From Mytilus edulis (taxonomy: Eukaryota): DNA of 64,000 nucleotides. Shown in pieces: positions 2,863 to 63,360 of the stretch. Both the position numbers and the translations under genes were made by a program. Each line of letters begins with the position of its first letter. The first letter of the stretch is position 1. Below the pieces are notes generated by a model. The model saw nothing but the letters and a program-made list of their open reading frames with translations, made no database searches and was not told the DNA's origin. The stretch lies in contig NC_092351.1 in assembly GCF_963676685.1 (NCBI RefSeq), forward strand, positions 35,898,001-35,962,000. Reading direction: 5' to 3'.

Positions 2863-5800
2863 ATTTGTTTGTACTCCCAATAAAACTTCTTCAACATAAG
2901 AACTGAAACTGGCATTATATAAATAAATAAAAATATAAATATATTGAATTTATAAAGTAAACATGAACATGAACTACAGTAAAACTTAAAGAGATGTTTT
3001 TTATAGAAATGAATTTCTGAAGCAGACATATTTTTCTTTGCTTGATATATGTTTCAAGTTCTCAGAATTAGATGTTTTAAATAAGTTAGTGAATAAATCC
3101 TGACATTTTCGTCTTAAAAATAGCCTACCCTAAAGATTTTATTGTAATTTTTCATTAAGCACTGTTAAAGTCAGATGTTGGTTCTATAGACTCAATGTAA
3201 AAAAAAAATCCCTACCTACCTACCCTAACTATTTCCAGATGTAACTGAAACCACATATCCTATTTTATTTGGCCTTATTATAGTGTATATAACTGTAAAC
3301 ATGCTAATTAAACAAAGTGCAATTCAATTTCCTGATTTTCGTGAGAAAAAAAATTAATGCTAAAATGAATTGTTGCAAATATTCAAAATTGGATCTTTTT
3401 TATTTAACAAGTAAATTTGAAAATCTGGAAATTAAATCGCCTCAAATGGGCTTGAAAGGGCTAGATGTGAAATAAAGTGTCCCGGAAAATAAGTTAGTTT
3501 TCAGTATTCTTTTTTCTACTTTTTTTGTCTTGATTGTAAGGAGAGTAACACAGTGAAGATGTAACAATCCTAGATATCATATTGTCGGCAATTTAAACAT
3601 GTTCTGTCTGAAATTAAAGTTTTTTAAGACTTCATTAATTTTGTCAAACATTATTGAAATTTTAGGAATTATGGATAGAAGCTGCTTCACAATCATGAGA
3701 TAGCATCTGGGGATATTTTGAAAAGAATTTTTTTATTAGTAATTTTGTTGTATCTTACAGATAAATGGATAAATCGTTGGATAAGTTACTTATTAGTTAT
3801 GTTTACCAGTAAATCACATTTTAGAGTTCTGGTTTTTTATACATCAATAACGTCAAATCTTAATAGATGGTAAAAGAACTTCAAAAGCTTCTTCTTGATC
3901 AAGATATAGCATCTTGAAAAAAATTTGAATTTGAATTTTCCATTTTCCATTTATAAATTATTCTTTTTTAATTTAATATTTATAAACAGTCTAGGACTTA
4001 AATTTTAAAAACTTCAATAACTTTTCAAAACGGTCATGGAATTTACATTAAGATCTCTTTTACAGACCTTTGGTGGATCATAACACAGCTATTTATTGTG
4101 TATCTAAATATTTTTGGCTGTCAAGTATTAAGAATTTGTATAACTTTGTCAAACCTTCATAGAATTTTATCAAACTTAGAAGCTTCTTTGTATACAAGAG
4201 ATATATATATAGTTCTCAAAGCAAATCATCTGTTTTTGTTTTTATCTTTTTATTTTTACTTTGGCATTTTTCATTTTTTTTCATTTCCACTGACAGTAGC
4301 AGCTTTGTACATGATATTACCATATTCCACTTTATCATTTATATTGTTAAAAGTATGGAATTAAAAGTACTCATGATTTAAAGAAAATTAAATACTAGAA
4401 ACTGTGTAATTTATTAATTACTTAAGATTCTATGTACATGTACTAAGGAAGATAACTCCAATTCTAAAATTAATTTTTACAATCAATAACATAATGTCAT
4501 TTCTAAGTAGGTGGGAAAAGTAGTTCTCCTGTGAACAGGGTATAAGATTAACAAGTCAAAAGTTTTTTCTTCTCTAACCATATCATAATTTATCTATATA
4601 ACCTTATAATTTGAATTATATATGCAAATACATTGATTGTTAGCAATCAATCATTTCATCTTTTATTATCAGTCTACACGAAATCATTTCCTACTACTTG
4701 TCTGAACTTTAAAAAACAATATTCCAACACTTTCCTCATGTGTCTAAACATGCAAGGACTTACTAGTCTAAAATTAATTTTACTAGTCTGGGTAAATTTG
4801 ACTTGACTGTCAGTGAAGATTGAAGTAGTATTTATCTCCATGTTTTTGTTTGTACATTTAAAGGAATCATTATGTGCTGTATCAAATCAATAATAAAATA
4901 TAATTTTAAGCTTTGTGCTGCGATGGTTAAATGCTGTAATGTATTATGTCCACATATTATATTGCAACATCAATTATAAATACATACAGAATTAGACATG
5001 AAGCAACAATTTTATTGCATTGACAATAAATTGATAGATTGGTCTTTACACTCAATACAATTCATTCAATTATTAATGCTATGATTGGTTCTTTTTTTAG
5101 GACAATGTCTTTTTCTGTGAATACAAAGAGAAGATAAAAAAAACTCTATATAATGATCTTTTTTCATGGATCATGATTAATGAAGATAGCAGATTTTTCT
5201 CTATTTTATGTGCATACCTGGATAAAGGCCTGCAACTAAGAAAATCAGAAAATTAGTTAAATACTCTAAAATATATCAAAATTATCTCCCCTTGACCACT
5301 GATCCTTTCTTCATGCATTTGAATTTGAATTATTATTTTATGTTTCTTTAATCACTCTGTAATGTTTATGTCATGTTGTAATTAATGTTATGCTCTTAAT
5401 GGGCTCTTTAATTTGGAAAATAAAAAAAATATTGTATATTGTATTGTATATATACATGTACAACTGGAAATTTCCTGACATTTTCAAACAACTACAGAAC
5501 TTAATTGTTTTGAATACTTAAATAAGTTTTTTTGCTCATTGTGATGAATAGATATAAGACATAGATTTCTAAATGTTTTAGAAGAAATTATGTAAAAACA
5601 ATTATAATATTTTTCAAACATACATGTTCCTGCAAAACCTTTTTGAAGTTGTATGACTTGGTCAATGTAAAGACTTTTACTTATTGTACAACAATTTTAT
5701 TATAAGAAAGTTTTTCACCAAACACTTTTTAGTGACCACAATCTTAAAATTGAACACTGGATGTGGGATTTTGATGCTGTGTGGAAGACCCATTGATGGT

Positions 5801-10653: not shown

Positions 10654-11185
10654 GTTGTTTGTCTGTTGTTGTGTTTTGCCTTTGTGCATGTTGTGTTGTC
10701 TGTTGTTGTGTTTTGCCATTGTGCATGTTGTGTTGTCTGTTGTTGTGTTTTGCCATTGTGCATGTTGTGTTGTCTGTTGTTGTGTTTTGCCATTGTGCAT
10801 GTTGTTTTGTCTGTTGTTGTGTTTTGCCATTGTGCATGTTGTTTGTCTGTTGTTGTGTTTTGCCATTGTACATGTTGTGTTGTCTGTTGTTGTGTTTTGT
10901 CATTGTACATGTGTTGTCTGTTGTTGTGTTTTGCCATTGTGCATGTTGTTTGTCTGTTGTTGTGTTTTGCCATTGTACATGTTGTTTGTCTGTTGTTGTG
11001 TTTTGCCATTGTACATGTTGTGTTGTCTGTTGTTGTGTTTTGCCATTGTGCATGTTGTGTTGTCCGTTGTTGTATTTTGCCATTGTGCATGTTGTGTTGT
11101 CCGTTGTTGTGTTTTGCCATTGTGCATGTTGTGTTGTCCGTTGTTGTGTTTTGTCATTGTGCATGTTGTGTTGTCTGTTGCTTTT
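10654..11185. repeat. Minisatellite, ~37-bp unit (GTTGTGTTGTCTGTTGTTGTGTTTTGCCATTGTGCAT), ~14 copies
   Basis: Period of 37 is directly visible (GTGCAT at 10684 and 10721), with 33-36-bp variants. Confidence 0.95.
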
Positions 11186-12015
11186 TAGCCATTGTGTTTT
11201 TCGAATTTGTTGTATTACTTTATTCATTGCATTGTTGGTTGTTTTTTTTAGTAATTTTGTTGTCTGTTGTTTTTATAGCCATTGTGTATTGTTGTTTTTT
11301 AGCCATTGTGTATCGTTGTTTTTTAGCTATTGTGTTGTCTGAGGTTTGTTTTTCTTTTGACTAAAGTTTTTCTATTGTTACCTTGATACCCTTCTCCCCT
11401 TCTGTGTATGTGCCTTAGGTTTTGCGTTTGCTTGTGTATTACAAAAATGAGAATATAGATCATGCCCAGGTCAAGTTTAGTGTTTCTAGGAAGATGAATT
11501 ATTTTATTTACATATATAAGGTGGTGCAATAAAGTCATTAGTTACTAAACTTGTATGTCAAATATATTTATGGCATACATGTATCTGGAAGATATACATG
11601 TACGTAGTAAAAGTCAATGTTTTCAGAAATTGTTTACAGACATGTTCAATAATTGCTATTTCAAATTATTATTTTGTAGAATAAAGCTATTGTGAAGAAT
11701 ACAGCTAAAACTATCTACCATTTTTTTTTCTGCAAATACTAACTTTTTGTATTAGCCTTTTTTTTTAATTTGTTTATGACAGATATCAGTGCAGAAATGT
11801 GACAAATATAGAAATAGGTTATCTAACTCGGATTATAGTTAAACATCAGTATTTATTGAACTTAGGTTTGTAATAATCAAGAAAACATCTTTAATCCTGC
11901 CAGACAAATGGTCATTGAAAAAGTTACACAAACAACAGGTTGTCTCAGTTTGCTATATTGAACAGACATGACATTAAACTGATGAAATCAGTGATGAGTG
12001 TTGGTATTGGACTCA

Positions 12016-47430: not shown

Positions 47431-47529
47431 GTAGTCCACAAACTACTAGCTAAACCAATACTCTACATTCCAAACCAGCTATCGTAATTAGAACTTGAAA
47501 TAGCCCCAGTTTGAAATTATTGCCATAAT

Positions 47530-49468
47530 GTGTTGAACAACTAGCACCCATCCTGCAAATTATAATGCAATGCTCGCTAGACACAGGTGAACTACCAAAT
47601 GACTGGAGAGACGCGAACATATTTAGTATCTTCAAAAAAGGTGACAAACGTCTAGCAGAAAACTACACCTGTATCCTTAACATCTGTCATAAAAAAAACA
47701 AGATCCTAACCAACTTAAACCACGGCTCCAGGTCAGGATACTCATGTGAAACCCAATTCATAACTACCATCAACGACTTCCTACAAGAACATGACAAGGG
47801 ACATCAAATCGACGTAGGCATATTAGATTTCTCAAAAGCATTTGACATAGTACCACACAAGTTATTACATAAGTTAGATCAATATGGAATCAAAGGAAAC
47901 CCACACAAATGGCTTAAAAACTTCCTAACTGCCAGATCGATGCGAACCATCGTGGAAGGCGAATCATCAGGCGAAACAACAGTCCCCCAGGGCACCGTCA
48001 TAGGACCAATCCTGTTTCTGTGCCACATAAATGACCTTCCGGCCAGCGTAACATCATCAGTAAGACTTTTTGCCGACGATTGCATACTGTACAGAACAAT
48101 TAAAAAATAGCCAAGACCGACAAAAACTACACAGATTTGGAACATCTAGAAATCCGGGCCTACAAAAGGAGGATGCGATTCAATGCCAAGCAGTGCTATG
48201 TCTTATCCATAAACAAAAAGCAGACAAATTCTATACGCTTGATAAGCACATCCTACAAAAGGTACAAGTGAACCCATACTTAGGGCTCCAAATATCAAAC
48301 GATCTGAAATGGAGTATCCACATAAACAACATCAGTAAGAAAGCCAACGCCACCTTGGGCTTTCGTAGGAGTATCTTGAGAAACGTACCAGAGGCATGTA
48401 GGAAAGTAGCATACATATCCTTAATAAGATCGACAATGGAATATGACACAACACTCTGGAAGCCATATATGAAAGGGGATATTGACAAACTGGAACGTAT
48501 CCAAAACAGGCATACGATTCATATATAAAAAAAATTACATGCAGGAGTCGAGAAACAGGATCCATAACTAACATGAGACGCCAGCTTGAAATGGAGACGC
48601 TAGAGGAAAAAAAAAACACCCTCCGTCTTATCCTGATTTACAAGGTGATTGATGGTCTGATGCTTGTATTTCCTATCATGATTTTCTTGATAGAGGGTTG
48701 CTGCTCACAAGTAAGCTATTAAACCAAGAGTTGAACTCATCCCTTCGTAAATTTTACGGACGCCATCACGTTTTGGTTGACCGTTATTGAAAAACCGTTT
48801 CACAGATGATATGGGATATGTTCCTTACAATTCCCTTCCCTTTCATGAATGTGACCTACCGAATTAGACTTTTTACCGGATTTGTTTTTACATGAGCAAC
48901 ACGACGGGTGCCACATGTGGAGCAGGATCTGCTATCCATTCCGGAGCACCTGAGATCACCCCTAGTTTTTGGTGGGGTTCGGCGTGTTGCTTATTCTTTA
49001 GTTTTCTATGCTGTGTCATGTGTACTATTGTTTGTCTATTTGTCTTTTTCTTTTTTAGCCATAGCGTTGTCAGTTTTTTTTTTTCGATTTATGAGTTTGA
49101 CTGTCCCTCTGGTATTTTTCGTCCCTCTTCTCTACCAGCCGATAATTTTGTCATACCAGCACGACCTAAACGAACTATCAAAGCTAAAGCATATTCAAAC
49201 TATGAAACTGACAATATTATTGAACGTCAAGTAATCAATAACACCAGAGAACTTAAAGTACCAAATAGCAACAAACCACAGTATAAACATTCAATTTTTG
49301 AGGAAACAACTATTCACTGGAACCAATTAACAGATAAAGTTGTGCATGCAGGTTCTATAGAGGAATTTAAGACCGCTCTACAAGAACTACGCCCATAACA
49401 ACGGCGCTCTTCTCAACCGTGTATAAAAGCCTAAATAGGATTCTACACGTACCACTACAGATACAGAA
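47530..49468 (+). mobile_element. 5'-truncated, frameshifted non-LTR retrotransposon (RTE-X/CR1-like) RT pseudogene
   Basis: RT motifs [42 protein letters not shown] and the C-terminal YKHS...TTIHWNQL, with stops, frameshifts and deletions. Ends in a TACAGATACAGA short-repeat tail. Confidence 0.9.
48662..49129 (+). mobile_element. 3' fragment of a probable Penelope-like retroelement nested in the LINE
   Basis: Translates ACISYHDFLDRGLLLTSKLLNQE..SSLRKFYGRHH.LVDRY, resembling a PLE RT-thumb region, then a T/G-rich tail. The host LINE frame reads KVIDGL before and LPADNF after. Confidence 0.7.
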
Positions 49469-54865: not shown

Positions 54866-55328
54866 GATTTGTTATTCATTATGGTTGTCGTTAGTTGCTT
54901 TTTATGATTTTATCTTTTGTTTGTAGTTTAGAGCATGAATCAAGCTTTTGGGTATCTAATTAAAATTGTTTTAGAACGTTTATAGCTTATTATACAGTGT
55001 TGGCTATTGCTTTAAGGCCATACGATAAACTATAGTTGTTTACCTCAAAGCATTTAGTCTCTGGTATACAAAGATCATAGTGTCCTTTTAAGCATACTTA
55101 TCAAAGGTACCGGGCTTATAATATGATATCTTCAGGCTTCTTATTCTAAATACGGATTAACAATTTAAGAGGACTAATGTCAGAGGGTCAAAGATGGCCT
55201 GAAACTTCTTTGTATTCTAGACATGGAACAACTGTATGCTGTTTACGAGTTCTATAACCAGTGGGAATTATGGTTGGCGATGCACCATGTTTATTGTGAA
55301 TGTATATTTTTTTTTTTATTAAATATAT

Positions 55329-57335: not shown

Positions 57336-58199
57336 TGTAAGATAGTGATTTCCGATCTTGACACGATTTGTAGGCTGTTAACAAACAGGAGACTATTAAT
57401 TGTCACTGTTGATGTGACAAAGACCTCTACTTTTTACTATCTTTATTGCGTTGTTTTCTCTCCCTTTTACTCGTCCAACTTACAAATATTTCATCATATT
57501 TTTTCATTTTGCATGGCACACCATCAATTATAGTAAATATTAACACATTTAAGGTCAAATATTTAAGGAATAACAGTACTGTAGTTGAAGAGTTGCCACC
57601 GTCATTATACGTCGTTTTTGTAGAAAGTACCGTTTTACCTATATCAGGGTTAAAACGTCAAAATGACGTCAATTATCGCCAAACCATGAACGATATGCAA
57701 CTAAGAATCAGAGAGACGTTATAATAGTATCGTGTAAAGTAAAATTTGAATTAACTATATTACCAGCTGCTTCAAATAAGACAATAATACTACAAAACTG
57801 TATTCTTTCATTTTTTTATGCATGACCTTTGACCCCAATTAAAAAAAATTACACCATATTTCACTTTTACGACCGGGAAAAATGGAATCTACACATGTTT
57901 TCCTTTCGAATGATATATAATATAGCTGTGTGTTAGATAGGTGCATTAAAAATATTTTTTAGGTCTGAATGTCACTCGCCTATAAGGCTTCAGCTCCCTC
58001 AAGCAAAGTTAACCTGAGATGCATTTTTTCCTTAAATCATTTCGGTTCTTATAAAACCTTCAAATATTCGGCCTTGAGTGTACCACATAAAGGTAAATAA
58101 AACCAAAAACACTTGGACGCACGAAATTCATAACTTGTTTTTTTCATTTTTTTATGAGGTGAAATATGATATGTGTTGTGACGTTGATTTTATTTATAG

Positions 58200-59970
58200 G
58201 TTTCAAAAGATATCACACTGATCTGTTGCCTTCTTTAATGTCACTTGGTATGTTTCGAAAGAAATCACACTGATCTGTTGTCTGCGTTCTTGTACTTTCA
58301 TATGAAGAGAGCACTCTCATCCGTTGCCGCCATTATTGCCACTTCGTATATGTTTCGAAGAAATTCAACCGATCTTTTTCTAATGCATGTCTTTTTGTCA
58401 TTCAATACGTTTCGAAAGAAATCACAATTATCTTTAGCCTTCTTTAATGCCACTTGATATGTCCGAAAGAAATCACATGGATCCGTTGCCGGCATTGTTG
58501 CTTCGTATGTTTTGAAGAAATCACACCGATCTAATGCACTCTTTATTGCTATTTGACATGTTTCGAAAGAAATCACACTGATCAGTTGCTTGTCTTATTG
58601 CCACTTGATATGTTTTAACAGATATCATACTAATAAGATGCATGCCTTTTTGCCATTGATATGTTTCAAAAGTTATAGAAATTTTATGTTGTCTGCCTTG
58701 TTGCCACTTGATATGTCACACTGATCTGTTTCATGCCTTATTGATATGTTTCGAAAGAGTTCGCAATGATATGTTGTCTGCCTTGTTGCCACTTGATATG
58801 TTTCAAAAGAAATCACACTGATCTATGTCTTGCCTTAGAGCAACTGTGGCATGTTTCGAAAGAAATAACACTGATCAGTTGCTTGTCTTATTACCACTTG
58901 ATATGTTTCAACAGATATTATACTAATCTGATGCCTGCCTTTTTGCCATTGATATGTTTCAAAAGAAATCACACTGATCTATGTCTTGCCTTAGAGCAAC
59001 TTGCCACTTGATATGTTTCGAATGCGGTCGCAATGATATGTTGTCTGCCTTGTTGCCACTTGATTTGTTTAAAAAGAAAACACAATGATCAGTTGTTTGC
59101 CTTATTGCCACTTGATATGTTTCAACATCAGTTTCTTGCCTTATTGCCACTTGATATGTTTCAAAAGATCTCACAATTATAAGTTTCTTGTCCTATTGCC
59201 ACTTGACCTTTTTCAAAAGATATGACACTGATCAGTTATTTGCCTTCTTGCCACTTGATGTTTCAACAGATATGACACTGATTAGTTGCTTGCCTTATTA
59301 CCACTTGAAGTATTTCAAATATATCACTCTGATCAGCTGCTTGCCCTAATGCCACTGGATATTTTTCAAAAAATATTATATGACACTGATCAGTCATTTG
59401 CCTAATTGCCACTTGATATGTTTACACAGATTTGACACTAATTAGTTGCTTGCCTTATTGTCACTTGAAGTATTTACAAATGTATCACTCTGATCATTTC
59501 CTTGCTCTAATGTCTCTGGATATGTTTCAAAAATATAACACTGATCTATTCTCTACATATTTGCCCTTTAGTATTATTTTACAAAGAAATCACACCAAGC
59601 CTGCTTTGTTGCCACTTTATATGTTTCGAAAAAAAATCATGCACACTAATCTGATGCCTGCCTTTTTGGCCATTGATACATTCTGGATTTTTTTTCGAAA
59701 GAAATAGCACTGATCTATAACCTGCCTTATTGTAACTGGATTTTTTACTAAAGAAATCGCACTGATCTGCATTTTGCGTTTATTATTGTTGCTTGATATG
59801 TTTCAAAAGAAGTCGCAGAGAGATATGTTACTTGCCTTATTGTCATTTATTCTGTTTTAAAAGATATGATACTAGCAGATGCTTGCCTAATTGTCACTTG
59901 ATTTTTTTGAAAGATCTCACACTATCAGTTGCTTGCCCTTTTCCCACTTGACATGTTTCAAAAGAAATTT
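58200..59970. repeat. Degenerate ~53-bp minisatellite array A (~33 units)
   Basis: Recurring TTGATATGTTTCGAAAGAAATCACACTGATC..TTGC.TGCCTTATTGCCAC. Confidence 0.92.
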
Positions 59971-59981
59971 CATTTTCATTT

Positions 59982-60690
59982 TGATACTGATCTCCATAAA
60001 TAAGTACACATTGAACTGCCATTGTGTGTGTCTGCTCTCGGACTAACTAATTGTTAAAGAAGTACAAACTTTATTCACGAGGTTTGATCAGTTTAATTAG
60101 AGTAATTTGATTGAAAGAAAATACTTTTGTTTTACTATAACTGTTGCTTTGATACATATAAAACGGCAAAAGAAGAAGGGGTATCATATTTACTAGCTGT
60201 AGCCCACCACTTATTCGTGTCTTATAGTTTTTGTTTCCGTTGTTTGATGGTTTTCTCATTGGTGTATAATCGCATCTCTTTTTCACGTGGATAGTTGTTC
60301 ACTGATGTGGTTAAAACATGGCATCATTACTAAACTATCCAGGGGCGGATCCAGCCTTTGTTAAAAGGGGGTTCCAAATATATGTCCCCAATCAAATGCA
60401 TCACCCCTCCCCCTTACGGCCGCCTCCTTGATCCGGCACTCCTAACTAACCAATTAACCCAATATCATTTGCTTACCTTAAAATGTTGAAGGGTTGAAGC
60501 TTGGTGTTCACTCTGTAATGCCTTAAGCTAATAAAAGTACTAATAGAATAAAAAGAAAATTTTCAAGGTCCTTTTCTTAGAAAACACTATAAGATATAAA
60601 TACAAATTCTGTGTACATTATGCACTCATGTGAGTATCAAATGTATTGATTTTATGGAAATATAAAGTTGTATCATGAACTTCAAAATTT
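59982..60690 (+). repeat. Unique tail of the duplicated block, paralogous to 63360-63990
   Basis: Colinear matches GATCTCCA.AAATAAGTACACAT, GTTGCTTTGATACATATAAAA, TTCACGTGGATAGTTGTT, a shared MITE, and AAGTTGTATCATGAACTTC. Confidence 0.88.
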
Positions 60691-61242
60691 AAATGGGTTA
60701 TCAGCCACAAGTACGTATTATTTTTCTAATAATTACAGTTCAAATTTTAATTATGAAACAGCTAAAAGCAATAACATGAACAGATAGATGATATATAAGG
60801 ACTCGATAAACCATATTAAAATGAAGACATTAATAACATCATTATTTTGCACCTGTGTTTTTTTATATCATGAAAAAGTTGACAGAATAACAACTGATTG
60901 ACTAGAGTACAACATTTTATTAGAGTAACATTCATTAAAAAAAGAAGATAATTTAATAAAAAAAGCGAAAAAAAAAAATTAATTTCAAAATCATTGATCA
61001 TTGTATTGTAAGTATAATGTTATGGAAATGAAGCATGATGAAAAATTTAATAGAATAGGAAAATTGAACGAACTATTTCTGTCCAAGTGTTTTTGAGTGT
61101 TTCACTGTCACAAAAAAATGGAGACTTCAGTTGATATAAACCAAAGGTACTAGATATCAAAAGAAAGAAAACAGACTATACTTCTTTAAAAGCTTCATTC
61201 GCCACTAAAATAGTTATCAAAGGTACCAGGATTATAATTTAA

Positions 61243-61289
61243 TACACCAGACGTGCGTTTCGTCTCCATAAGACTCATCAGTGACGCTC
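61243..61289 (-). ncRNA. Type I (minimal) hammerhead ribozyme, intact core
   Basis: - strand: GCGUCA CUGAUGA GUCU-uaugg-AGAC GAAA CgcacG UC^ UGGUGU. Stems I and II and a minimal stem III can form. Predicted cleavage between 61250 and 61249. Confidence 0.85.
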
Positions 61290-61599
61290 AAATCTAAATA
61301 GTTATAAAGCCAAACACGTACAAAGTTGAAGAGCATTGAGGACCCAAAATTCCAAAAAGTTGCGCCAAATAAGGCTAAGGTAATCTATTCCTGGGATAAG
61401 ACAATCCTTAGTGTTACGAGAAATTTAAAGTTTTGTCAACATTAAAAATTTACTAAAATTACCATATAACTGATATTCATGTCAACACCGAAGTGCTGAC
61501 TACTGGGCTGGTGATAACCTCGGGGACGAAACGTCCACCAGCAGTGGCATCGACCCAGTGGTGAAAATATTTATCAAAGGTACCAGGATTATAATTTTA

Positions 61600-61646
61600 T
61601 ACGTCCGACGCGCGTTTCTTCTTCATAGGACTCATCAGTGACGCTC
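61600..61646 (-). ncRNA. Type I hammerhead ribozyme, damaged stem II
   Basis: - strand: GCGUCA CUGAUGA GUCC-uauga-AGAA GAAA CGCGCG UC^ GGACGU. Core nucleotides are intact but the closing G-C pair of stem II is lost. Confidence 0.7.
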
Positions 61647-61964
61647 ATATCTAAATGTTATAAAGCCAAACAAGTACAAAGTTGAAGAGCATTGAAACAC
61701 CGTCAAAAGCAAAACCAAATCACATATCCTGCCAAGCCTTTTATTAGAGATAAGAGTTTGAAATACGACTGTATTTTGCTAGCAAAACAAGTTGAATACA
61801 CTTACATTTCATTAATAGAACACACTTACATGGATTTAGATTTTTATGATATTTTTTCAGCGAATGAAATTCAAGAACTTATGATAAGGTATCTCTCCCT
61901 TGCTACATACGGATATCTCAGATACCCGTGTTGTCTTGATATATGTAATATCTGATAAACAGAT

Positions 61965-63360
61965 AAAGGACATTCGATATGTTTCAAAAGTAATGACGCT
62001 GATTTTCTGTCTCCTTTATTGTAATTTGATATGTTCCGAAATAAAGCACATTGATCCTTTGCCAGCATTATTGCCACTTCGTATATTTTGAAGAAAGCAC
62101 ACTGATCTAATGCATTCTTTATTGTCATTTGACATGTTTCGAAAGAAGTCACACTGATTGTTTGCCTTCTATAATGGCGCTTAATATCTTTAAAAGAAAT
62201 TGCAATGACATATTTCCTGCCTTATTGCCACTATATGTTTCGAAAGAAACCATACTGATGTTTTACCTTTCTTATTGCTACTTGATATGTTTTGGAAGAA
62301 ATCACACTGATCTGTTGTCTGCTTTGGTGACACGTAATTGATATATTTCGAAAGAAATCATGCACACACATCTGATGCCTTTTTGGCCATTGATATGTTT
62401 CGAAAGATAACACACCGATCTATATCCTGCCTTATTGCAACTTGATATGTTTCTAAAGAAATCACACTGATTTGCATGTAGCCTGTATCGTTGTCACTTG
62501 ATATTTTTCACAAAATATCACACTGATAAGTTGATTACCTTAATGACAGTTCATTTGTTTCAAAAGATATCATACTGATCTATTCTCTGCATATTTGCCT
62601 TTAGGTCCTTTTTTATGTTTCAAAGAAATCAGACTGGCCTGGTGCGTTCTTTAATGCCGCTAAATATATTCAAAAGAAATTACCCCGATCCATTCCATGC
62701 CTTATTGCCACGATATGTTTCGAAAGAAATTGTCTATCGTATTGCTAATTTAAATGTTCTTTGTTGCCTCTTGATTGATATATTTCAACAGAAATAACGC
62801 TCAACTGATGCCTGCCTTTTAAGGTCCTTGATATGTTTTGAAAGATATCACACTGATCTATTACCTGTCTTATTACAACTTGGCCCTTGGAATTTAAAAA
62901 AAAGATATTATTCTGATCAGCTGCTTGCTTTTTAAGCCACTTGATCGGTTTCTAAAGATCACTAACTGACCAATTGCTTACCTTTTCCCCACTTCATTTG
63001 TTTCAAAAGATATCATACTGATCATTTGCTTGCCTTTTTTGCCACTTCATTTGTTTCAAAAGATATCATACTGATCATTTGCTTGCCTTTTTTGCCACTT
63101 CATTTGTTTCAAAAGATATCATACTGATCATTTGCTTGCCTTTTTTGCCACTTCATCTGTTTAAAACGATATCACATTATCAGATGCTCACATTGCTTTC
63201 CCTTGATATGTTTTGAAAGATATCACACTGATTAGTTGCTTGCTCTATTAAATCTTGATATGTTTTTAAAAAAATACACTGATCTGTTGTCTGCGTTTCA
63301 AAGAAATCACACACAGTTGCCTACCTTATCTCCACTCAAAAGAAATAACATTGATATGTC
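61965..63360. repeat. Degenerate ~53-bp minisatellite array B (~26 units)
   Basis: Same consensus as array A. Three near-identical 53-bp units at about 63001-63160 fix the period. Confidence 0.92.

Follow-up and report, generated by a model that had tools for sequence, protein, structure and literature searches.

The window analysed here, a 64,000-nt stretch of Mytilus edulis DNA, carries on its - strand (61208..61695) what we read as an old, 5'-truncated retrozyme insertion that was likely made by the enzyme of a Naiad element and that, through random decay of its upstream ribozyme, probably releases no 357-nt circle. We give this reading a probability of roughly two in three. The retrozyme family is already published and this copy itself is ordinary. 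The family-level link to Naiads matters because, according to a 2020 review, animal retrozymes have no conserved motif that would allow a helper to be deduced. The features of the locus are as follows.

61696..61701, - strand: left target flank, defined by the empty paralogous site
61208..61695, - strand: whole insertion, consisting of a 5'-truncated partial unit, one full 357-nt unit and a tail (1.37 units, retrozyme subfamily A), defined by the empty paralogous site and alignment to a young copy
61601..61644, - strand: upstream type I hammerhead, predicted cut 61607/61606, predicted inactive (pattern, Rfam, fold energy)
61565..61606, - strand: internal copy of the 42-nt stretch from the cut to the retrozyme's fixed 3' end (self-comparison, end survey)
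61502..61559, - strand: three-stem hairpin common to the retrozyme and the Naiad 5' start, putative recognition and start signal for reverse transcriptase (RT) (alignments, covariance)
61481..61500, - strand: 8-bp hairpin with a UUCG loop
61250..61606, - strand: predicted cut-to-cut monomer of 357 nt, which would need both cuts
61244..61287, - strand: downstream type I hammerhead with a predicted cut at 61250/61249; its core and stem II are intact, loop III reads GCAC and stem I is weakened
61208..61249, - strand: terminal 42-nt tail up to the retrozyme's fixed 3' end (GATAACTATTT), putative RT start (end survey, RNA reads)

Structure and insertion of the retrozyme

The - strand contains CUGAUGA at 61638-61632 and again at 61281-61275, 357 nt apart, each followed in order by stem II, GAAA, stem III and GUC, and the unit from cut to cut (61606..61250) is likewise 357 nt, so the positions and spacing given in the original prediction were correct. 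When we searched for the pattern CUGANGA-GAAA-UH, these two cores were the only - strand matches in the window, and the + strand gave one chance-like match. The Rfam model Hammerhead_1 finds both cores, as had been suggested for a check with Infernal, with 28.2 bits at 61287-61244 (E 1.6e-4) and 19.4 bits at 61644-61601 (E 0.13), but both fall below the gathering score of 34, at which Rfam has no match anywhere in the window. A further candidate on the + strand (CUGGUGA...GAAACGUC), which is the complement of the hairpin, was dropped by eye, as its core is changed and the 10.1-11.1 pair is missing. The duplicated part of the element covers just 133 nt (61695-61564 versus 61339-61207, 91%), and the element therefore amounts to 1.37 units, short of a full tandem; the two 133-nt overlaps differ by 9%. 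No open reading frame of at least 120 aa was found over the element, and the Naiad-type frame (N-terminal GIY-YIG, CxC, DKA, RT) is absent, leaving a non-coding element with a type I hammerhead in each repeat unit, a ribozyme that is intact in the family. The UUCG-loop hairpin at 61481..61500 is consistent with the - strand acting as the folded RNA.

A count of the intact hammerhead core over the genome (1.37 Gb, 14 large contigs) gave 14,326 exact matches, and the reversed control gave none. The best 60 genomic matches are 89-92% identical to this copy (91-92% for the nearest), family units are 350-365 nt long, and some arrays exceed 10 units of 355 nt. Retrozyme insertions have variable 5' ends and no terminal repeat structure. 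These family features and the intact genomic cores support the earlier assignment to mussel-type non-LTR retrozymes with type I hammerheads, and the element has the published hallmarks of metazoan non-LTR retrozymes, namely tandem units of 150-450 bp, many copies and GC under 50%. In M. galloprovincialis, retrozymes have been described with about 5000 hammerheads, 350-390-bp repeats, circular RNA and ligation by RtcB (PMC7229834). From its size, ribozyme type, copy number and Mytilus genome we infer that our element belongs to that family, with which it shares the type I hammerhead, tandem repeats in thousands of copies, low GC, the lack of an LTR and presumably of PBS and PPT, and sense RNA with cut ends; unlike the published elements, this copy is decayed and has only 1.37 units. 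Stem III remains an 8-nt palindrome across the subfamilies while its sequence changes among four forms (ACGCGCGT, ATGCGCAT, AAGCGCTT and ATCCGGAT), which suggests that dimers matter to the family.

Some related repeats were seen along the way. Two further retrozyme subfamilies (L159, L165, L160, L161) have 350-nt units and other hammerheads, with the palindromes ATGCGCAT and AAGCGCTT; they too have the hairpin and the fixed end, and Rfam misses their ribozymes. Subfamily B copies at L042/L043 form a head-to-head inverted pair that resembles inverted 5'-truncated Penelope-like copies. A 442-bp tandem repeat with a tRNA-like head (L088:98 and 540 on the + strand, L092, L071) carries a CUGACGA...GAAAGCUU stretch just upstream of that head, inside the region complementary to it; this stretch does not fit a plain hammerhead and has no Rfam match.

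The locus lies within an old tandem segmental duplication of about 3.3-3.7 kb with 74% identity (60000-61210 versus 63378-64494). The paralogue, about 3.3 kb downstream and just beyond the window, lacks the element and thus serves as the empty site. It has a run of four T that is divided over both junctions, and the insertion was therefore accompanied by a 0-3 bp duplication or by microhomology. A DNA contig of run X15 covers the 3' junction. Candidate target-site duplications among 38 insertions measure 6-7 bp in six and 4-5 bp in eight; they are AT-rich and partly due to chance.

The 3' ends of the family are fixed. Among 78 distinct hammerhead contexts, 35 run on into the next unit and 43 are terminal, and 41 of the terminal ones end 36-50 nt past the cut, this copy at +42; the same held for 22 of 22 terminal hammerheads in a sample chosen by position. 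RNA reads of other copies (124) run off into unrelated DNA at 61208-61210. The 5' ends, in contrast, are scattered over unit positions 30-347 in 38 insertions (41 were found, and three were dropped for incomplete alignment or proximity to the locus edge). By analogy with the Penelope-like element PAc in vitro, a fixed 3' end with scattered 5' ends is the pattern that target-primed reverse transcription from one internal site would leave. Because most insertions cross the cut, the template would have been circular or uncut. Pattern matches for 5' truncations at the cut, one base before it and two bases after it numbered 67, 49 and 86, and the examined cases were true truncations in 21/30, 14/20 and 5/20 (about 47, 34 and 22), which leaves at most a weak excess at the cut such as a linear cut template would produce.

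This pattern also bears on an origin at the DNA level, in which the copy would have arisen by duplication or by unequal crossing-over of satellite-like repeats, with no reverse transcription. The element does lie among copies of a 52-bp satellite within a tandem segmental duplication, and the discussion of a recent preprint notes that arrays can grow by recombination (bioRxiv 10.64898/2026.07.22.740005), but the clean insertion into an empty site, together with 3' ends that are fixed and 5' ends that are scattered over the dispersed copies, largely refutes such an origin, which we regard as very improbable.

Other repeats in the window include degenerate arrays of the 52-bp satellite in two blocks within the segmental duplication (58196-59970 and 61975-63360), a young 37-bp tandem array (10654-11196; 15 copies, 94% matches) that yields spurious Cys-rich open frames, and, on the - strand at 55094-55128, a 35-nt remnant of the retrozyme tail alone (86%), which resembles 43-nt cut-to-end mini-insertions elsewhere in the genome.

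Decay of the two ribozymes

Both hammerheads of this copy are damaged, in the ways that had been noticed before: the downstream one has an intact stem II and the non-palindromic stem III ACGCACGU (CGCACG), and the upstream one keeps the palindrome ACGCGCGU and has a broken stem II. In the upstream core the conserved G10.1-C11.1 pair is lost through a C11.1 to A change (61619), U10.4 has become C, and a U1.1 to G change at 61606 turns the innermost stem I pair, next to the cut, into an A.G mismatch. A mismatch at the N1.1 pair slows hammerhead cleavage. The G10.1-C11.1 pair has been termed highly conserved in hammerheads (PMC4209133). Stem I of the downstream ribozyme has suffered a C-to-U change and contains three wobble pairs. 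The upstream hammerhead fold is calculated at +2.3 kcal/mol, versus -5.7 for a young copy, and the downstream fold at -1.1 kcal/mol, with its stem I at -1.1 versus -5.9. From these models the upstream ribozyme is predicted to be inactive, and the downstream one may keep some activity as a monomer. A partition function over the whole transcript gave near-zero probability for every hammerhead helix, in cis or swapped, a result that is uninformative because the isolated ribozyme of the young copy also fails to fold as a hammerhead there.

Damage extends beyond the ribozymes. In the hairpin one stem pair is broken (61517), and the A just 5' of it is changed (61564). The monomer differs from the family majority at 21 of 334 conserved columns, where the family median is 4 (range 0-26), and 14 of these 21 departures occur in none of 30 other units; these 30 distinct units, taken from the top matches and the intact-core matches, lean young as a sample. 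By sequence divergence, this copy is old and among the most diverged that we examined.

The original prediction held the element able to release the 357-nt monomer and saw the two defects as pointing to a double-hammerhead fold. The logic of the swap is sound in principle: the downstream core, being intact, would cleave first the upstream site and then its own. Geometrically this would work, as the mixed stem III forms 7 of 8 pairs with one mismatch (-7.9 versus -13.3 kcal/mol) and the swapped stem I forms 5 pairs (-6.3 kcal/mol). On energy alone the swapped ribozyme may form, and the downstream ribozyme may still cut. The palindrome kept across subfamilies suggests a role of dimers in the family, and rescue by dimerization has been published for axolotl retrozymes (PMC7229834). 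The swapped ribozyme nevertheless retains the A.G mismatch beside the cut as well as the stem III mismatch, and since the upstream base pair beside the cut is lost, even a double-hammerhead rescue would be handicapped. The idea that the two defects complement each other by design is not supported either. A CpG-type transition accounts for the CGCACG loop, which 512 other cores also have, and 738 cores have A or T at 11.1 or a base other than T at N1.1 (the matches to a relaxed pattern, which allowed C at 11.1, minus those to the intact-core pattern). Because the same variants recur in so many cores, both defects look like ordinary decay. In addition, this copy has no known promoter, its flanks have no reads and its private base at 61606 is missing from the one RNA run, and with its hairpin damaged as well, its circle would likely be a poor template. 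We therefore consider it unlikely that this copy still frees a 357-nt monomer through a double hammerhead.

The newt and axolotl double-hammerhead retrozymes resemble the mussel family in a palindromic stem III that permits a dimer fold, but their stem III is too short for activity as a monomer, whereas the mussel stem III, with its two pairs and tetraloop, allows cleavage from a single repeat (PMC7229834, PMC4209133); for the mussel ribozyme in a single cloned repeat, a kobs of about 0.1/min is given (PMC7229834). In Xenopus, eight of nine predicted genomic retrozyme dimers did not cleave (bioRxiv 10.64898/2026.07.22.740005).

For expression, we read about 6% of one stranded raw RNA run (X24) and aligned it to this locus and to the young copy. 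At this locus 459 reads aligned at 95% identity or more, all within the repeat, and the unique flanks had no read depth in this sample. The reads carried the family base at the private sites of this copy in 34/34 cases at 61606, 163/163 at 61564 and 201/212 at 61517, where the remaining 11 lacked it. No read in this run could be tied to this copy. This absence is weak evidence, because the sampled animal may not carry the insertion. The young copy gathered 5308 reads at 90% identity or more, with sense reads outnumbering antisense ones about 6:1 in the body. A total of 117 molecules end on the base that directly follows the predicted cut (its position 3945, depth 493). These reads indicate that the family is expressed and cut in vivo. 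Two smaller pile-ups were also seen: 101 read starts at the hairpin base, where a C-A step at the stem edge may make them a library effect, and 18 read ends at 61618, which adjoin a private base and are likely due to clipping. Random decay of the upstream ribozyme has probably ended the release of the 357-nt circle, and we infer that this copy is inactive.

A hairpin common to retrozymes and Naiads

A three-stem hairpin (61559-61502) comes immediately after the retrozyme's fixed 3' end. Three Naiad families of this genome begin with it too, and in them it lies between the end of the pLTR and the ATG. Their open frames of 1053, 1007 and 1000 aa have an N-terminal GIY-YIG, the CxC motif, RT and the DKA motif, which is given as diagnostic of Naiads (Craig et al. 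2021, PMC8557442), and the 1053-aa family matches Naiad_Mgal. Naiad 3' ends stop before the hairpin as well. This was the case for 30 of 30 Naiad-1 ends sampled by position, with only ORF-bearing tandem junctions continuing into it, and likewise for Naiad-2 and Naiad-3 (four loci and window 48825-49133). A structured signal therefore sits at the same place relative to the 3' end in retrozymes and Naiads. Retrozyme A and Naiad-3 align at 78% over 96 nt (E 1.4e-15), and three further retrozyme subfamilies keep the hairpin behind their own fixed end.

In an alignment of 12 rows from 7 families, 10 of the 23 hairpin pairs change on both sides and 97.8% of cells are paired. None of 500 shuffles reached the observed pairing, a control that overstates significance because the rows are related, and slid structures reached 36-51%. 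We searched 343 kb with a covariance model of the hairpin, including canonical Penelope-like loci, and recovered only Naiad starts, this copy and one other place (L129), with no match in the canonical loci searched. In the supplement of Craig et al. (PMC8557442), 11 of 12 occurrences of CTGCTGGTGG sit at the 5' start of Naiad consensuses, and the consensuses with the hairpin core come from mussels, oysters, clams and two hemichordates. The link between retrozymes and Naiads through the hairpin is thus well supported at the level of sequence comparison.

The link became clear only after further Naiad families were added. BLAST of the element against 30 GIY-YIG loci did not detect the Naiad hairpin, and a single local alignment to Naiad-1 scored 39, within shuffles (null maximum 44). 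Rfam holds no family for the hairpin, nor did one appear at E up to 0.1 in L168, L088, L159 and L160; the divergent hammerheads of subfamilies C and D escaped that search as well. A first guess at the common motif, the GCCAC-GTGG stretch of the Naiad-3 3' UTR, was wrong.

Because the hairpin and the fixed 3' ends are common to both, the Naiad RT/endonuclease is the likely helper, which agrees with the Penelope-like enzyme that had been proposed and narrows it to the Naiad clade. By analogy with the anole Penelope-like element, the hairpin would recruit and position the Naiad RT; lying just before the ATG, it could instead serve Naiad translation or transcription. The insertion would then proceed as follows. 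Intact tandem copies would be transcribed and cut at their hammerheads, in line with the family cut ends in our reads and with published in vitro results, and a host ligase would close the monomers into circles, as has been published. A Naiad RT/GIY-YIG protein would bind the hairpin, which its own 5' start also has, and nick AT-rich DNA, and cDNA synthesis would begin 40-45 nt past the cut, immediately 5' of the hairpin; we propose this step because the hairpin and fixed 3' ends are shared, again by analogy with the anole element. The RT would read across the ribozyme junction of a template that is presumably circular or an uncut multimer, and drop off at random, giving the observed scattered 5' ends and lengths of 0.3-4 units. 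The inserted copy would then decay neutrally.

A different helper has to be weighed, namely a canonical hammerhead-bearing Penelope-like element of the Neptune or Poseidon type, with this copy equally decayed and the hairpin either a passenger acquired from a Naiad or a signal for translation or promoter function. This genome is rich in canonical elements that have open frames and hammerheads, and Xenopus retrozymes match the pLTRs of canonical elements (bioRxiv 10.64898/2026.07.22.740005). The mussel retrozyme, though, has no clear similarity to the canonical loci tested, where one weak match, of 111 nt in L097, resembles an old retrozyme copy; the model of the hairpin has no match in those searched; and the hairpin stands in the same positional relation to the 3' ends of retrozymes and of Naiads. 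A canonical helper is thus doubtful, and we prefer a Naiad.

At the family level, we lean towards a picture in which mussel retrozymes are viroid-like circles with a 5' hairpin stolen from hammerhead-free Naiads, where the hairpin would be a portable signal for binding and starting the Naiad RT. Exchange may have gone both ways or started from a common ancestor, because the Naiad-2 3' UTR retains a stretch of about 290 nt that resembles the retrozyme (69-70%, E about 1e-37) and includes a degenerate hammerhead. This stretch (L166:5365-5646, L167:4660-4948) has a dead hammerhead core and no hairpin. If the picture is true, any RNA circle with the hairpin could be copied into the genome as a rolling-circle tandem.

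Comparison with known systems

The published account of mussel retrozymes (PMC7229834) reports self-cleavage of the monomer, and in the text available to us its description does not include a fixed 3' end, a hairpin or a named helper. Naiads, as described by Craig et al. 2021 (PMC8557442), resemble the retrozyme in 5' truncation, partial tandems, a fixed 3' end, AT-rich targets and the 5' hairpin; they differ in encoding GIY-YIG and RT and in lacking canonical hammerheads, while the retrozyme is non-coding and has one. We found no mention of the hairpin in the portions of that article's text that were available, though its consensus sequences contain it. The Poseidon element PAc of Anolis (Frangieh et al. 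2024, PMC11167929) also cuts AT-rich DNA; its RT begins at an internal site of the RNA, a stem-loop downstream of the hammerhead, and this start fixes the 3' end found in the genome, much as we propose here. Unlike the retrozyme, PAc is autonomous, has a C-terminal endonuclease and differs in sequence, and its insertion in vitro did not need hammerhead cleavage (PMC11167929).

Xenopus retrozymes are, as would be the case here, non-autonomous partners of Penelope-like elements (Li, Clavereau, Pollet, bioRxiv 10.64898/2026.07.22.740005), but they are from a vertebrate, belong with canonical clades and show similarity to pLTRs. The words mussel, Mytilus, tail and hairpin are absent from the main text of that preprint. 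Our search of the literature found no paper on a retrozyme-Naiad link, and the supplements of PMC7229834 and of the 2026 preprint, which we did not see, may bear on it.

A covarying hairpin beside a fixed 3' end names a helper clade and a likely cis signal, and the in vitro assay that already exists for Penelope-like elements makes the question of the helper testable. If the proposal is true, Naiads, which are dominant in the genomes of bivalves, would have their first candidate for an RT start signal, and the hairpin might serve as a short RNA module that steers circular RNA into a genome.

Further Penelope-like sequences were encountered in the course of the analysis. A Naiad-3 3' fragment lies in the window on the + strand (48825-49133), is 93% identical to the Naiad-3 3' UTR and ends at the Naiad-3 fixed 3' end; its insertion site is close to the end of a broken LINE-type RT (47529-48528; RVT_1, E 2e-14). 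Several young canonical Penelope-like families with open frames occur elsewhere (L064, L068, L074, L090, L095-L097), and some of them carry minimal hammerheads of their own and TA-repeat targets.
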